Virus record (IMG/VR): IMGVR_UViG_3300029738_000110
Reading direction: 5' to 3' (one strand)
Length of the DNA: 5,371 nt
From: a virus
Lineage: Duplodnaviria > Heunggongvirae > Uroviricota > Caudoviricetes
This document shows, one piece after another, positions 1 to 5,371 of the stretch. Each line of letters begins with the position of its first letter. Within the stretch, counting starts at the first letter, position 1. The position numbers and the translations under genes are program-made. Under the pieces are notes generated by a model. The model did no database searches. It worked only from the letters and a program-made list of their open reading frames with translations, and was not told where the DNA came from.

Positions 1-935
1 GGGTTGACGCCGGAAGAATCAGAGAACAGATACCGTTTTTACTGTAAAACCGTGGCCAATATTACTTGACCACTACAAAGGATGCCAACGATAAATGGAA
101 TGCCATGTGGGCTGTCAAAATTGAGCAGACCAAAGACGGCAAACATTATGTCGCGGGTATTGGCCTCAGCATGGAGGACACGGAAGAAGGCAAGCTGAGC
201 CAGTTTCTGGTTGCCGCTAACCGTATCGCGTTTATTGACCCGGCAAACGGGAATGAAACGCCGATGTTTGTGGCGCAGGGCAACCAGATATTCATGAACG
301 ACGTGTTCCTGAAGCGCCTGACGGCCCCCACCATTACCAGTGGTGGAAATCCACCGGCATTTTCCCTGACATCAGACGGAAAGCTGACCGCTAAAAATGC
401 GGATATCAGTGGCAGAGTGAATGCGAACGCCGGGACGCTCAACAATGTCACGGTAAATGAAAACTGTACGATTAAGGGCATGCTGGAGGCGACTCAGGTC
501 AGAGGTGACTTCGTTAAAGCTGTATCCAAATCATTCCCGAAACAGGCTGGTACGTGGGGTAACACGGAAACACCAAACGGGACGGTTACAGTCACCATCA
601 GCGATGATCATAACTTTGACCGTCAAATCATTATTCCGCCCATTATCTTTAACGGAATAGCGTATAGCGATCCGGGAAGTGGTAATAACCCGGGAGGTAC
701 AAGATACACGGGTTATGGTTTTGAAGTTCGCAAAAACGGTGTATTAATCGCATCCAGAGAAACTAAAGGGGCCATTCCCGGTAGCTACAGTGCGGTTATT
801 GATATGCCGAGTGGCAGGGGAAGCGTCACTCTGGAGTTTAAGGTTTTCCATAAAGGCAATCAGTGGGCAGGTAATATCACCGACTGTACGGTGATTGTGA
901 CCAAAAAAGCCGCTTCCGGCATCAGTATTCGTTGA
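1..935 (+). CDS. J: 3' portion of host-specificity protein J (central tail fibre / tail tip), partial at the window edge. The frame is discontinuous: frame 1 is open from 1 to 66 and stops at TGA 67-69, while the long frame-3 ORF (66-935) has an in-frame TAA at 45-47. Possible frameshifted pseudogene.
   Basis: The 289-aa translation ([91 protein letters not shown]...GISIR) matches, from memory, the C-terminal region of lambda J-family proteins. There is no ATG or Shine-Dalgarno at the ORF start (TTG at 66 only), consistent with a gene that begins upstream. It sits directly upstream of lom and stf, as in lambda. Confidence 0.8.
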
Positions 936-1004: not shown

Positions 1005-1076
1005 ATGCGTAAACTTTATGCCGCCATTTTGTCCGCAGCCATTTGTCTGGCCGTATCCGGTGCGCCTGCATGGGCA
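1005..1076 (+). other. Sec signal peptide of Lom (predicted signal peptidase I cleavage after AWA)
   Basis: A basic N-terminus (MRK), a hydrophobic core (LYAAILSAAICLAV) and an A-W-A motif precede the mature N-terminus SEHQ. Confidence 0.7.
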
Positions 1077-1604
1077 TCTGAACATCAGTCCACGCTGAGC
1101 GCGGGGTATCTTCATGCCCGGACCAACGTTCCCGGCAGTGATGATCTGAACGGGATTAACGTGAAATACCGTTATGAGTTTACGGATACGCTGGGGCTGG
1201 TGACGTCATTCAGCTATGCAGGAGACAAGAATCGCCAGCTGACCCGTTACAGCGATACCAGCTGGCATGAAGATTCCGTGCGTAACCGCTGGTTCAGCGT
1301 GATGGCGGGGCCGTCTGTGCGCGTGAATGAATGGTTCAGCGCGTATGCGATGGCGGGTATGGCTTACAGCCGTGTTTCGACTTTTTCCGGGGATTACCTT
1401 CGCGTAACTGACAACAAGGGGAAAACGCACGATGTGCTGACCGGAAGTGATGACGGTCGCCACAGCAACACGTCTCTGGCGTGGGGGGCTGGCGTGCAGT
1501 TTAACCCGACCGAATCCGTGGCCATTGATATTGCTTATGAAGGCTCCGGTAGTGGTGACTGGCGCACTGACGGTTTCATCGTGGGTGTCGGTTATAAATT
1601 CTGA
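1005..1604 (+). CDS. lom: Lom, an Ail/Lom/PagC/OmpX-family outer-membrane beta-barrel protein (lambdoid moron)
   Basis: The 199-aa ORF has an N-terminal signal peptide (MRKLYAAILSAAICLAVSGAPAWA, then SEHQ) with an AXA cleavage site. It has alternating amphipathic beta-strand character and ends in the OMP-typical aromatic ...GVGYKF. Its position between J and stf is the same as lambda lom. Confidence 0.9.
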   Translation: MRKLYAAILSAAICLAVSGAPAWASEHQSTLSAGYLHARTNVPGSDDLNGINVKYRYEFTDTLGLVTSFSYAGDKNRQLTRYSDTSWHEDSVRNRWFSVMAGPSVRVNEWFSAYAMAGMAYSRVSTFSGDYLRVTDNKGKTHDVLTGSDDGRHSNTSLAWGAGVQFNPTESVAIDIAYEGSGSGDWRTDGFIVGVGYKF

Positions 1605-1668: not shown

Positions 1669-4065
1669 ATGGCAGTAAAGATTTCAGGTGTACTGAAAGA
1701 CGGCACAGGAAAACCGGTACAGAACTGCTCAATCCAGCTGAAAGCAAAACGTAACAGCACCACGGTGGTAGTGAACACGCTGGCCTCAGAAAATCCGGAT
1801 GAAGCCGGGCGTTACAGTATGGATGTTGAGTATGGCCAGTACAGCGTTATCCTGCTGGTTGAAGGTTTTTCGCCTTCACATGCCGGGACCATCACCGTGT
1901 ATGAAGATTCTAAGCCGGGGACGCTGAATGATTTTCTCGGTGCCATGACGGAAGATGATGTCATGCCGGAGGCATTGCGTCGTTTTGAGGAAATGGTGGA
2001 AGAAGCGGCACGCAACGCTGAAGCCGCCTCTCAGAGCGCAGCGGCGGCAAAGAAATCCGAAACTGCAGCGGCATCATCGAAGAACGCGGCGAAAACCTCA
2101 GAAACGAATGCAGCTAATAGTGCACAGGCGGCAGCGACCTCAAAGACTGCATCGGCAAACTCCGCGACAGCAGCCAAAAAATCAGAAACCAACGCGAAAA
2201 ATAGCGAGACAGCCGCAAAGACGAGCGAAACCAACGCAAAGTCCAGCCAGACGGCAGCGAAAACCAGCGAAACGAATGCCAAAGCCAGTGAAACTGCGGC
2301 AAAAAACAGCCAGGTTGCAGCAGCCCAAAGCGAGAGCGCGGCAGCCGGTTCTGCGACTTCAGCAGCTGGATCAGCAACTGCTGCGGCTAACAGCCAGAAA
2401 GCTGCGAAGACGAGTGAAACTAACGCAAAGTCCAGCCAGACGGCAGCGAAGACCAGCGAAACGAATGCCAAAGCCAGCGAAACTGCGGCGAAAAACAGTC
2501 AGGATGCAGCAGCCCAAAGCGAGAGTGCTGCAGCTGGTTCTGCAAGCGCGGCGGCTGCTTCTGCCACTGCATCAGCCAACAGTCAAAAAGCAGCAAAAAC
2601 CAGTGAAACCAATGCAAAGACAAGCGAGACTGCAGCGGCGAACTCGGCGAAAGCATCGGCAGCAAGCCAGACAGCAGCTAAAGCAAGTGAAGACGCAGCC
2701 AGAGAGTATGCAAGTCAGGCAGCAGAGCCGTATAAATATGTCTTACAGCCACTGCCTGATGTGTGGATACCGTTTAACGATTCACTGGATATGATTACGG
2801 GCTTTTCGCCGTCATATAAAAAAATTGTTATTGGTGATGATGAAATAACGATGCCTGGCGACAAGGTTGTTAAGTTTAAACGCGCATCAACTGCCACATA
2901 TATCAATAAATCAGGCGTATTTAGTGTTGCTAAAATTGATGAGCCACGATTTGAAAAAGAAGGTTTATTGATTGAAGGACAGCGCACTAACTATTTTGTT
3001 AAATCCAATACTCCCGCTGAATGGACGAGTACCAGCAATATCGATAAAACTAATAATGGTGTTGATGAATTTGGTTTTTCATATGCCAAAATGCGAACAA
3101 AAGATAATATGACAGGACAATCATCTGCACTTAGTCTGCATACATGCAGTGCATCCCGGGGGATTGATGTTAGTGGCGATAATAAGTATTGCACTGTTTC
3201 ATGCAGGGTTAAAGCTCCTGATGGTCTTCGTTGTCGTTTGCGTTTTGAAAAATACGATGGGTCGGTTTATACATTTTTAGGAGATGCTTATTTAACTTTC
3301 GGAACTCTGATAATAGAAAAAACTGGCGGAGCAGCCAATAGAATAGCAGCTACTGCAACTAAAGATCCGGTTACAGGGTGGATTTTCTATGAGGCAACTA
3401 TAGAAGCTGTTGAAGGTGAAACCTTAATTGGCGCAATGATTCAGTATGCGCCGAAAAAAGGTGGTATAACTGAAGCGGGAGATTATATTTACCTTGCAAC
3501 ACCACAATTTGAAAACGGCGGATGTGCTTCATCTTTTGTTATTACGACAACTGCACCCGCAACCCGCTCCAGTGATATGGTGACGATCCCAACTGAAAAT
3601 AATATCTATAATAGACCGCTTACGTGTCTTGTCGAGGTTAATAGAAATTGGGGCGATATTCCTCCTAATGTAGCACCGCGTATTTTTGATTTTTCTGGTG
3701 TGCCACCTATTGAGTCAATTACATACGCTTTTAACACAACTGAGAAATATTACGGTCAGCTTTATATGCAAACTTATAAAGCGTCGACAAGTACTTACGT
3801 TTCTAGTGTGTTTGCTGGTCGAGCTGATGTTCGAAAATTCATTGGTGGTTTTAATATTTATTCTGATGGTACTAAACGAGTAGTTTCTAACGGTGAGGCT
3901 ACTAAAACTATGAAAACGGAGTGGACGGGCGTAAAAACACGGACCTTTATTCGAATTGGAGGTCAAGCCACATCGGGAACTCGTCATCTATTCGGCCATT
4001 TGAGAAATCTTCGTCTCTGGCATAAAGAATTAACTGATGCGCAAATGGGGGAGAGTATTAAATGA
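1669..4065 (+). CDS. stf: Side tail fibre protein (Stf family). It has a lambda-like N-terminal attachment domain, an Ala/Ser/Thr-rich repetitive shaft, and a divergent AT-rich distal (receptor-binding) domain.
   Basis: The 798-aa ORF starts MAVKISGVLKDGTGKPVQNCSIQLKAKRNSTTVVVNTLASENPDEAGRYSMDVEYGQYSVIL..., which matches the N-terminus of lambda Stf as I recall it. A G-rich Shine-Dalgarno (GGGGGGAA, 1660-1667) lies just upstream of the ATG. The central part is an SETNAK/TAAKTS repeat shaft. The C-terminus ends ...FGHLRNLRLWHKELTDAQMGESIK. Confidence 0.9.
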   Translation: MAVKISGVLKDGTGKPVQNCSIQLKAKRNSTTVVVNTLASENPDEAGRYSMDVEYGQYSVILLVEGFSPSHAGTITVYEDSKPGTLNDFLGAMTEDDVMPEALRRFEEMVEEAARNAEAASQSAAAAKKSETAAASSKNAAKTSETNAANSAQAAATSKTASANSATAAKKSETNAKNSETAAKTSETNAKSSQTAAKTSETNAKASETAAKNSQVAAAQSESAAAGSATSAAGSATAAANSQKAAKTSETNAKSSQTAAKTSETNAKASETAAKNSQDAAAQSESAAAGSASAAAASATASANSQKAAKTSETNAKTSETAAANSAKASAASQTAAKASEDAAREYASQAAEPYKYVLQPLPDVWIPFNDSLDMITGFSPSYKKIVIGDDEITMPGDKVVKFKRASTATYINKSGVFSVAKIDEPRFEKEGLLIEGQRTNYFVKSNTPAEWTSTSNIDKTNNGVDEFGFSYAKMRTKDNMTGQSSALSLHTCSASRGIDVSGDNKYCTVSCRVKAPDGLRCRLRFEKYDGSVYTFLGDAYLTFGTLIIEKTGGAANRIAATATKDPVTGWIFYEATIEAVEGETLIGAMIQYAPKKGGITEAGDYIYLATPQFENGGCASSFVITTTAPATRSSDMVTIPTENNIYNRPLTCLVEVNRNWGDIPPNVAPRIFDFSGVPPIESITYAFNTTEKYYGQLYMQTYKASTSTYVSSVFAGRADVRKFIGGFNIYSDGTKRVVSNGEATKTMKTEWTGVKTRTFIRIGGQATSGTRHLFGHLRNLRLWHKELTDAQMGESIK
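2215..2592 (+). repeat. In-frame tandem direct repeat of two 189-bp units (63 aa each) in the stf shaft, followed by a partial third unit to about 2645. It contains nested 27-33 bp sub-repeats encoding (A)AKTSETNAK-like motifs.
   Basis: Copy 1 begins gcaaagacgagcgaaaccaacgcaaagtccagccagacggcagcg at 2215. Copy 2 begins gcgaagacgagtgaaactaacgcaaagtccagccagacggcagcg at 2404, exactly 189 bp later. The copies are near-identical and differ mainly at synonymous positions plus a few substitutions. Confidence 0.85.
4047..4055 (+). promoter_or_regulatory. Shine-Dalgarno for the 93-aa ORF, embedded in the 3' end of stf
   Basis: GGGGGAGAG lies 6-7 nt upstream of the ATG at 4062. The ATG overlaps the stf stop (ATGA at 4062-4065). 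Confidence 0.55.
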
Positions 4066-4343
4066 AAGATTTAACACTCAAATTTGCAGACAGGGCCGAC
4101 TTTTCGGCCTTTATGGAGAGCATTGGCTATTATGATGACGAGTCGATGCAGGATGATATTCTTATTGACGTGATAGGTAATGTGTACAAAGAAACCGGAG
4201 AACTTACTGAAGATGGCGAGCCGGTATGTGTTAAGGAGGACGGATATTTTGTAAATGTGCGCATCATTAATGATTCGCAAATATCGTCATTATTCGATGA
4301 ATACGTGGTTGCTGTTGAGCATCAACTCCGTAGCTGGATGTGA
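4062..4343 (+). CDS. Small acidic hypothetical protein (93 aa), translationally coupled to stf. Candidate tail-fibre accessory or chaperone protein, unrelated to Tfa.
   Basis: The ORF has an ATG start with an upstream Shine-Dalgarno and a 4-bp ATGA overlap with the stf stop. It is Asp/Glu-rich (MKDLTLKFADRADFSAFMESIGYYDDESMQDDILIDVIGNVYKETGELTEDGEPVCVKEDGYF...). It shares the AT-rich composition of the stf distal domain. I recognise no family. Confidence 0.6.
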   Translation: MKDLTLKFADRADFSAFMESIGYYDDESMQDDILIDVIGNVYKETGELTEDGEPVCVKEDGYFVNVRIINDSQISSLFDEYVVAVEHQLRSWM

Positions 4344-4346
4344 GGA
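4342..4346 (+). promoter_or_regulatory. Shine-Dalgarno for the 234-aa ORF
   Basis: GAGGA overlaps the stop of the 93-aa ORF and lies 6 nt upstream of the ATG at 4353. Confidence 0.5.
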
Positions 4347-4352
4347 AGAAAA

Positions 4353-5057
4353 ATGGCTACATCGACAGTAATTCCTGATGACATCAAAACGCTAAAGGGA
4401 GATGTCAGTAAGGCAAAGGAAGATATTTCCTCAATTAACGTAAAAGTATCAACGCTTCAGACTGATATGGACAGTGCAAAGCAGGATATCAGTACCAGAT
4501 ACACAAAAACAGAAGTGGATAATAAGCTGAAAAACAAAGTGGAAGTGAACGATCTGGAAAGTGGTCGTTATGGCGGAGATTTTTACCCGCTGACTGGCCG
4601 TGAAGCGTTTTATTTATGGGGATTGGGCACAACTACAGCGGCGGCAAATCTTTATCTTAATCCTGACCCTGCAATTTCGTCTGTGCTGCGGTCAACATCG
4701 TCTATCCGCTATAAACATTCAGTAGAGACGATAGATTCAGAGCACGCCGATCTCATTTTCAGGATGCGCCCTGTGTGGTACAGGTCGCAATGCGAAAATG
4801 ACAGGCGTGACTGGGGATTCTATGGATTGATTGCCGAGGAAGTTGGAGAAATTGCCCCTCAGTTTGTTCACTGGCGACCAGCCAACGAAGATGATGCACC
4901 GGAAACCATTTCCAGCAATGGCCTTGTTGCCGAAGGTGTAATGTACGAACGTCTGGTTGTTCCACTGATTCACCATATCCAGAAGCTGACTGAAAGAGTT
5001 GATGAACTTGAGTCAGAATTAAAGTTGTTATCCGTTTCCCGAAGCGATATCGGATAA
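4353..5057 (+). CDS. Tail-fibre-like protein with an N-terminal coiled coil and a C-terminal intramolecular chaperone domain (peptidase S74 / endosialidase-chaperone type), 234 aa
   Basis: The N-terminal 70 aa or so are heptad-like and charged (DIKTLKGDVSKAKEDISSINVKVSTLQTDMDSAKQDISTRYTKTEVDNKLKNKVEV). The C-terminal half carries the characteristic chaperone-domain pattern: SSIRYK (aa 116-121, nt 4698-4715; compare the S-D-x-R-x-K autocleavage motif), then VETID..ADLIFRMRPVWYR, then GFYGLIAEEVGEIAPQFV (compare GxIAQEVxxVxPExV), then GVMYERLVVPLIHHIQKLTERVDELESEL (compare the conserved Y..L..LI.AIQEL coiled-coil tail). Confidence 0.75.
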   Translation: MATSTVIPDDIKTLKGDVSKAKEDISSINVKVSTLQTDMDSAKQDISTRYTKTEVDNKLKNKVEVNDLESGRYGGDFYPLTGREAFYLWGLGTTTAAANLYLNPDPAISSVLRSTSSIRYKHSVETIDSEHADLIFRMRPVWYRSQCENDRRDWGFYGLIAEEVGEIAPQFVHWRPANEDDAPETISSNGLVAEGVMYERLVVPLIHHIQKLTERVDELESELKLLSVSRSDIG

Positions 5058-5062
5058 AGGAG
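5056..5062 (+). promoter_or_regulatory. Strong Shine-Dalgarno (AAGGAGG) for the 97-aa ORF
   Basis: The consensus AAGGAGG lies 5 nt upstream of the ATG at 5068. Confidence 0.65.
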
Positions 5063-5067
5063 GCGTA

Positions 5068-5361
5068 ATGGATATAACACCTTTCCTTCATGCACTTTGT
5101 GCTGTGGCTGCGCAGGTACTGGTTGGTCTTTTTACCGGAAACTGGGCTTACGGGGCGATAGCTGGTTGTACGTTCTTCATTGCGCGTGAACATACCCAGG
5201 CAGAATATCGCTGGATTGAAATGTTCGGGCATGGCAAGCGTATGAATATGCCGTGGTGGGGCGGTTTTGATCCGCGTGCGTGGGATGTGGCAAGCCTGAT
5301 GGATTTTGCTGTGCCGGTGGTGGCGTGTCTGCTGGTCTGGCTGTTGGTTAATCGTGGGTGA
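5068..5361 (+). CDS. Small predicted inner-membrane protein (97 aa, two hydrophobic helices), function unknown. Candidate prophage moron.
   Basis: It has an ATG start with a consensus Shine-Dalgarno. Hydrophobic segments lie at about aa 6-36 (FLHALCAVAAQVLVGLFTGNWAYGAIAGCTFFIA) and aa 76-95 (LMDFAVPVVACLLVWLLV). They are separated by a polar, Trp-rich loop (EYRWIEMFGHGKRMNMPWWGGFDPRAWD). Confidence 0.65.
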   Translation: MDITPFLHALCAVAAQVLVGLFTGNWAYGAIAGCTFFIAREHTQAEYRWIEMFGHGKRMNMPWWGGFDPRAWDVASLMDFAVPVVACLLVWLLVNRG

Positions 5362-5371
5362 AAAAAGGTGA

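Follow-up and report, generated by a model that had tools for sequence, protein, structure and literature searches.

The stretch of DNA analysed here (the window; 5,371 bases of a Caudoviricetes virus, IMG/VR record IMGVR_UViG_3300029738_000110) is the distal tail region of a lambdoid phage or prophage. Close behind its side tail fibre gene, stf, lies a gene for a protein of 234 amino acids (aa), whose C-terminal half is an S74, or intramolecular chaperone (ICA), domain; gene and product are called hereafter the S74 gene and the S74 protein. We consider it moderately probable that the product is a mini-fibre, i.e. a small distal part of the side tail fibre with a gene of its own, which trimerises, cleaves itself and docks on Stf. 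Coordinates of all features are collected in Table 1.

The original prediction, made from the letters of the sequence, had assigned the C-terminal half of the protein to the S74/ICA family, with Ser116 and Lys121 as catalytic residues, and had proposed a Pfam profile search as a check. This search gave a significant match to PF13884 (Peptidase_S74; 27.3 bits, E 4.6e-06), above the curated gathering cut-off of 22, in which aa 116-172 covered profile positions 1-57 of 58. Since the alignment begins at aa 116, Ser116 corresponds to profile position 1. A further block, GLIAEEVGEIAPQFV, is located at aa 158-172. Relatives were collected by a phmmer search of 1.8 billion cluster representatives, which returned 3,450 sequences at E<=0.001. 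Both Ser and Lys were kept in all of the 140 alignable representatives, and they were invariant in a 23-sequence alignment that included relatives down to 19-30% identity. With 3,450 relatives at this threshold, the match goes well beyond chance. The closest solved structure by sequence was the C-terminus of LtfA from phage DT57C (8hqz_d, E 5.3e-07).

An AlphaFold2 monomer model was of reasonable confidence over aa 124-231, with a confidence score (pLDDT) of ~70-89 in the domain. When it was compared with solved structures by Foldseek, the top matches were the ICA domain of MYRF (7dc3; E 4e-05, probability 1.00), GA-1 (3gud) and endoNF (3gw6). Among the viral models of BFVD, 99 matched at E<=0.001, and all the named ones were S74/ICA fibre proteins. 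By sequence, catalytic residues and fold, the S74 protein is a member of the S74/ICA family, as had been proposed. Self-cleavage is predicted between Thr115 and Ser116, and the computed masses are 26.3 kDa for the precursor and 12.6 and 13.8 kDa for the predicted cleavage products. The PGAP annotation of the gene reads 'tail fiber domain-containing protein'.

Only 115 aa precede Ser116. They form a six-heptad coiled coil followed by a Gly/Tyr-rich segment of ~65 aa, in agreement with the composition given for this body in the original prediction: heptads were found, and a helix was predicted at aa 9-47. Such a body is short, as had also been stated. In 120 Met-started representatives of the close relatives, the median length upstream of the Ser was 368 aa and the 5th percentile 121 aa; about 8% of these 120 have at most 140 aa before the Ser, some of them perhaps as a result of partial gene calls. 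The a and d positions of the coiled coil are occupied by I11, L14, V18, A21, I25, I28, V32, L35, M39, A42 and I46. A 227-aa variant lacks exactly one heptad (DVSKAKE), and longer relatives (up to 268 aa) have additional DVSTLKQ-like repeats. Because these insertions and deletions are whole heptads, or changes in repeat number, the stalk behaves like a structural coiled-coil spacer. The tip that follows it opens with a YTKTEVDNKL junction motif, of which YTKTEVD recurs in DT57C LtfA, and the segment is probably a short trimeric beta stub.

Tip and chaperone domain were also found together at the ends of much longer fibres. The match to phrog_3299 fell in profile columns 1147-1384 of 1385, and aa ~45-234 were 52-61% identical to the C-termini of fibres that are 539-1243 aa long (phmmer, cluster representatives). 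These longer fibres start with phage_tail_N and Phage_fiber_2, with Gp34_trimer/gp37_C, or with Phage_tail_fib parts. The 735-aa lambdoid Stf P0065 shares 74% identity with the Stf of the window over its first 200 aa and 59% identity with aa 50-223 of the S74 protein over its last 182 aa, and the junction is located at the common YTKTEV motif. P0067 (958 aa) is another full-length lambdoid Stf that ends in the tip and S74 unit. Given that this unit ends the full-length Stf P0065 as well as the longer fibres, it is a genuine side-fibre end. The 59% identity moreover means that the chaperone travels with its own tip, as expected for a cis-acting chaperone. In P0065 and P0067 the unit is fused in cis to a shaft, whereas the window encodes it separately from stf, and the Stf of the window ends in a different, lectin-like domain. 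In the S74 protein, the S74 domain is C-terminal, and the 50-65 aa before it are conserved and homologous to fibre ends, with a monomer pLDDT below 50. On this comparison, the window version is a split fibre end, undecayed, which is preceded in its own gene by an anchor of ~20 aa and a coiled coil that belong to it alone.

Integrity of the gene was inspected in 80 related viral loci from a viral-contig collection. An intact, ATG-started open reading frame (ORF) was present in 80 out of 80, encoding 234 aa in 66 of them and 227-241 aa in the others. The short form is 92-100% identical across these loci, and no variation hotspot was seen, the tip (aa 66-115) included. In one locus (L026, 5001-5723), an in-frame 7-aa duplication (AEEVGEI) in the most conserved S74 block leads to a 241-aa protein. 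The ratio of non-synonymous to synonymous substitution rates (dN/dS), measured against a 93%-identical copy in the BL21-derived strain BAP1, was 0.19 (0.25 in the first 115 aa, 0.12 in aa 116-234). Of 5,426 complete E. coli genomes, 740 contain 80% or more of the gene. Full-length relatives (221-268 aa, 54-72% identity) are present in lambdoid prophages and in Drexlerviridae, where the virulent, ~50-kb phages KarlJaspers, PeterMerian, Jahat_MG145, SECphi27 and swan01 carry them. The S74 gene is a real, widespread prophage gene under purifying selection. That it might be the truncated 3' remnant of a longer fibre gene, an outcome that the original prediction had named as counting against it, is ruled out by the homologue search, by the 80 intact ORFs, by the purifying selection and by the full-length orthologues in virulent phages. 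The claim of an unusual use of the domain went too far, given the 740 E. coli genomes, the ~8% of S74 relatives with a similarly short body and the two-piece fibres already known.

In every annotated relative, the S74 gene comes after a large fibre gene and a gene encoding 92-93 aa. This arrangement is found in lambdoids (PhiR49_1, Tritos, PhiR11_1), in Nonagvirus (ESCO3, JenP1) and in Drexlerviridae (KarlJaspers, PeterMerian, swan01). The three lineages share the C-terminal ~430 aa of Stf, the 93-aa protein and the beginning of the S74 protein; the attachment part of Stf differs by lineage, with 7-29% identity over aa 1-130 outside lambdoids. These comparisons point to a mobile module, made of the Stf C-domain, the 93-aa protein and the S74 protein, that is grafted onto lineage-specific Stf N-termini.

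The middle member of the module is an acidic protein (isoelectric point 4.05, phrog_1361), and the ATGA overlap of its start codon with the stf stop codon couples its translation to that of stf. Its gene is located directly 5' of the S74 gene in 77 of the 80 loci; in the remaining three, a gap of equal size is seen at this place. The protein is 78-100% identical among the 80 loci, with a dN/dS of 0.45 relative to BAP1. It had no match in Pfam, NCBIfam or the PDB, and its listed homologues were too alike one another for structure modelling. We regard it as a candidate helper or adaptor of Stf. The original prediction had overlooked this stf-coupled gene, which is the more obvious Stf helper.

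In lambda (Stf-Tfa) and in Mu/P2-type phages, fibres mature only with the help of a small gene that follows the one for the side tail fibre. This is the functional slot that the original prediction had in view for the S74 gene, but the S74 protein has no sequence or domain relation to lambda Tfa or to the Mu/P2 assembly proteins. Neither the 234-aa nor the 93-aa protein matched a Tfa family in Pfam, NCBIfam or PHROGs, nor did any ORF of the window in Pfam or NCBIfam. Fragments of tfa, with the N-terminus missing, were seen just 3' of the module in BAP1 (L005, 9029-9139) and in PhiR49_1 (L001, 8445-8703), and they suggest that the module replaced the original 3' end of stf together with tfa by recombination. 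A Pin-type invertase adjoins the downstream tfa fragment in BAP1 and Tritos.

The position occupied by the S74 gene behind the 93-aa gene has more than one allele. A second one, of 346-351 aa, is found in Nonagvirus and in some lambdoids; it shares only the first ~24 residues with the S74 protein and carries a different body and a distantly related S74 domain. The exchange is visible in the lambdoid Tritos, where identity to the window was 90% for Stf aa 354-443, 72% for Stf aa 759-798, 97% for the 93-aa protein and 95% for aa 1-20 of the S74 protein, and fell to 12% for its aa 21-115 and 24% for its aa 116-234. The chaperone domain was therefore exchanged with its own body and not with Stf, and the N-terminal 20 residues stayed with their neighbours. 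The same 20 residues are 95% identical in ESCO3, where again the remainder of the protein shows only 12-24% identity, and 65-85% identical in PhiR11_1, KarlJaspers and PeterMerian. Taken across slot alleles, they are 65-95% identical, versus 12-46% for the body, and in the phage collection their sequence was found only at the N-termini of proteins in the S74 slot. As far as identities tell, the pattern of exchange is that of a docking anchor followed by a swappable, cis-chaperoned distal part.

Variation along Stf was distributed quite differently from variation in the S74 protein. Over the 80 loci the Stf C-domain is 41-100% identical to that of the window, and 17 alleles fall below 90%. Its conservation, expressed as majority fraction, was 0.84-0.93 over aa 339-443, 0.71 over aa 759-773 and 0.87 over aa 774-788, with aa 789-798 outside the profile. 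Since the variation is located in Stf aa 444-758 and none is concentrated in the mini-fibre, the Stf C-domain appears to be the polymorphic specificity determinant, a role that the original prediction had not considered for it. The domain is presumably glycan-binding, with the mini-fibre as a conserved accessory. NCBIfam family NF048003 (GTA_spike_fiber) matched Stf aa 434-634, and a weak match was obtained with the head spike fibre of the Rhodobacter gene transfer agent (6tb9, Rcc01080). No S74 domain was found within the Stf of the window in Pfam or NCBIfam. An AlphaFold2 model of Stf aa 339-798 had a mean pLDDT of 41, from a shallow alignment of 78-100% identical sequences, and was used for no claim. 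The Stf shaft contains nested tandem repeats of 21, 42 and 189 bp at 2166-2637 (2.3 copies, 83% match), of the KTSETNAK type, and Stf length varies from 735 to 812 aa among relatives, probably through changes in repeat number.

From these data we infer trimerisation, cleavage, presence in the virion, a docking site on Stf and contact with a receptor, as follows. The S74/ICA domain would bring three chains into register, fold the ~65-aa segment before it into a small trimeric beta stub and zip up the six-heptad coiled coil. Once the correct trimer is formed, Ser116 and Lys121 would cut between Thr115 and Ser116, freeing the 13.8-kDa chaperone domain. The mature mini-fibre (3 x 12.6 kDa) would then dock by its first ~20 residues on Stf, where the C-domain is conserved, and the 93-aa protein may take part in this. 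Once docked, it would be an unvarying tip or branch, next to a lectin-like, hypervariable Stf domain that would give strain specificity. Several of these steps have precedents. In MYRF and endosialidase ICA domains, self-cleavage by the Ser/Lys mechanism takes place only after trimer formation (PMC3742443). In MYRF, a conserved stretch of ~42 aa, expected to be a triple beta-helix, directly precedes the ICA domain and is tied to trimerisation and cleavage (PMC3742443); this makes a stub of 50-65 aa a plausible ICA substrate. In T5-like phages, the proximal fibre is the docking site of a distal protein that carries this chaperone domain.

Several points weigh against such a mini-fibre. The monomer model was of low confidence over aa 62-123 (pLDDT below 50), with a good N-terminal helix and S74 domain. 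The Stf C-domain model failed as well (pLDDT 41), so that the place of docking is conjecture. Conservation of the N-terminus might reflect nothing more than a recombination joint. A receptor-binding tip would usually vary, and this one does not. The BASEL annotators label the Drexlerviridae orthologue a putative chaperone. In the virion proteome of swan01, which lists five abundant proteins only, neither the large fibre nor the S74 protein is among them; this proteome is too shallow to support or refute presence in the virion. In the literature, nothing specific was found on experiments with this fibre family or with prophage PhiR49_1.

The original prediction had offered two readings, a short trimer docking on Stf or a chaperone recruited to act on Stf in trans. 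The former fits the comparative evidence better; the latter fits it less well and is, in our view, unlikely rather than refuted. As an assembly factor, the protein would bind Stf by its N-terminus, its S74 domain would register, fold or load the Stf chains, and it would then be released and be missing from the virion. Such a role would suit a Stf that has neither an adjacent Tfa nor an S74 domain of its own, and a helper recognising the conserved flanks could well be invariant while the Stf C-domain varies. The label 'putative lateral tail fiber chaperone' given to the Drexlerviridae orthologue also agrees with it, as an annotation only. It is less easily reconciled with the exchange of the S74 domain together with its own body and not with Stf (in Tritos, 24% versus 45-90% identity), or with other Stf proteins, such as P0065, that have the tip and chaperone unit as their own C-terminus, in cis. 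A pure helper would need no stalk of variable length kept in heptad register, a helper of Stf would more naturally be sought in the 93-aa gene with its translational coupling, and ICA domains are described as acting on the N-terminal sequence of the same chain (PMC3742443). No report of S74/ICA action in trans was found in the literature.

A mature trimer could also be attached to the tail tip or baseplate region instead of Stf, as a second, independent set of short fibres. Many phages have long and short fibres, and the S74 protein does possess its own conserved N-terminus and its own fibre end. A tail-tip anchor, however, would be expected to follow the lineage. In three lineages that differ in tail tip and Stf N-terminus, the S74 gene without exception accompanies the 93-aa gene and the Stf C-domain, the latter being upstream in all 80 loci. 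Since its companion is thus the Stf C-domain, whatever the tail tip, direct attachment to the tip seems to us rather less likely again. Lower still we place a transient cap, where the protein, cleaved or not, would mask the receptor-binding end of Stf until release and so limit re-adsorption of progeny to lysed cells. A chaperone 'cap' has been invoked for fibres of Alteromonas phages, and here an invariant protein adjoins a variable receptor-binding domain; those caps, however, are separate chaperones and not S74 proteins with a stalk and a fibre end of their own, which leaves the idea improbable. Most improbable of all is a non-functional leftover of a longer fibre gene after recombination. 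The match of aa 50-234 to the 3' ends of longer fibre genes and the Tfa fragments downstream in related prophages are what such an event might leave behind, but a leftover is hard to square with an ORF that is intact throughout and has an ATG with a ribosome-binding site, with purifying selection on either half, and with the full-length orthologues, 54-60% identical, of virulent Drexlerviridae.

The nearest counterparts of a docked mini-fibre are found among the Drexlerviridae. The orthologues of KarlJaspers (bas06_0035), PeterMerian (bas05_0029), Jahat_MG145 (annotated 'chaperone of endosialidase'), SECphi27 and swan01 (SWAN_00004) are 221-231 aa long and 54-60% identical over their full length. 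They share the N-terminal motif, the coiled coil, the tip, the Ser/Lys motif and the S74 domain, and likewise follow a lateral fibre gene and a 92-93-aa gene. These phages differ from the window in being virulent and T1-like, in having another N-terminal attachment part on the large fibre and in the absence of the 97-aa gene found downstream in the window. Two-piece or branched fibres, in which a C-terminal intramolecular chaperone is removed after trimerisation, are known for T5 (pb1), DT57C (LtfA/LtfB) and IrisVonRoten (Gp24), and the distal fibre Gp24 docks on a proximal fibre that bears a galectin-like domain. According to the BASEL authors, small siphoviruses show a similar diversity of one-piece and multi-piece fibres. 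Like two-piece lateral fibres, the S74 protein is encoded by a separate gene beside that of the proximal fibre, with a conserved N-terminus and, among slot alleles, a variable remainder. In contrast to them, the variable receptor-binding part is the Stf C-domain and not the S74 short form; T5-like distal proteins have several hundred to ~1,000 aa with large variable receptor-binding domains, versus ~115 predicted mature residues, near-invariant, in the S74 protein. The best structural match, MYRF (7dc3), resembles it in that a short stretch before the ICA domain accompanies trimerisation and Ser/Lys self-cleavage, and differs in being a eukaryotic membrane-bound transcription factor with other N-terminal cargo.

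Table 1. Features of the 5,371-base window (positions counted from its first base)
Feature	Position	Strand	Basis or remark
Tail-tip protein J, C-terminus	66-935		
Lom, single intact 199-aa ORF	1005-1604		
Side tail fibre Stf, 798 aa	1669-4065	+	
Stf N-terminal attachment domain phage_tail_N (aa 1-131) and Ala/Ser/Thr-rich shaft	1669-2727	+	PF08400, E 1.2e-68
Stf C-terminal domain, aa 354-798	2728-4065	+	All-beta core aa 444-758, hypervariable, between conserved flanks (aa 354-443, aa 759-798)
93-aa ORF	4062-4343	+	Start overlaps stf stop codon (ATGA)
Shine-Dalgarno-like GAGGA	4342-4346	+	6 bases 5' of S74 ATG; overlaps stop codon of 93-aa gene
S74 gene, 234-aa short fibre protein, 26.3-kDa precursor	4353-5057	+	ATG start
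N-terminal segment aa 1-20, MATSTVIPDDIKTLKGDVSK, proposed docking anchor	4353-4412	+	Conservation
Coiled-coil stalk aa 9-49, ~six heptads	4377-4499	+	Heptad pattern; AlphaFold2 helix aa 9-47
Tip aa 50-115, YTKTEVDNKL junction motif and Gly/Tyr-rich stretch up to the predicted cleavage site	4500-4697	+	
Catalytic motif S116-S-I-R-Y-K121	4698-4715	+	Pfam alignment; Ser116 at 4698-4700, Lys121 at 4713-4715
S74/ICA domain aa 116-234, 13.8 kDa, terminal helix included	4698-5054	+	Profile, model and fold matches
C-terminal helix aa 198-231	4944-5045	+	AlphaFold2
97-aa ORF, two hydrophobic segments (aa 3-24 and 71-97)	5068-5361		phrog_1443

Over its distal part (positions 4000-5371), the window is 98.5% identical to Escherichia phage PhiR49_1 (from an ECOR strain), in whose genome the S74 gene is annotated as hypothetical. 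Lom is annotated there as two coding sequences (L001, 2997-3610), being either disrupted in that genome or mis-sequenced. No promoter-like or terminator-like site was found on the plus strand between stf and the S74 gene, and a Shine-Dalgarno sequence precedes each gene; the genes are therefore probably co-transcribed. A search for RNA families in the region found nothing. Two antisense ORFs on the minus strand lie over the S74 gene, at 4737-4976 (79 aa) and 4759-5232 (157 aa); they were taken as chance, because the substitution pattern fits the plus-strand frame. The 97-aa gene lies 3' of the S74 gene in 76 of the 80 related loci. Lambda_ev, 4A7 and other lambda-like phages have it without the remainder of the module, and the modules of Drexlerviridae do not contain it; its product is probably a separate membrane moron and not a part of the fibre module.

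The S74 protein belongs to a common, previously annotated family, and its fibre architecture has precedent, so that it opens no new category. For lambdoid prophages and many therapeutic siphophages, the range of E. coli strains open to adsorption is set by the side tail fibres. Swapping of Stf ends, in lambda-based particles or in BASEL-type phages, would probably require that all three module genes be moved together. The S74 protein is also among the smallest natural ICA contexts in the relatives sampled, and chaperone-driven trimerisation and self-cleavage could conveniently be studied in it as a minimal model. A more far-reaching role, to which we give only a small chance, would be that of a conserved second adhesin or trigger at a polymorphic side-fibre end or, alternatively, that of an S74 domain that assembles a hetero-complex of Stf and the 93-aa protein in trans. 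For the latter, assembly of a partner in trans by an ICA domain, there would be no earlier example. In the former, the lectin-like domain of Stf would bind strain-specific glycans, and the invariant tip (3 x 115 aa) would contact a conserved surface feature. In either case, the module would be a portable host-recognition cassette, a 'variable lectin plus invariant tip', used by temperate lambdoids as well as by virulent T1-like and 9g-like phages.

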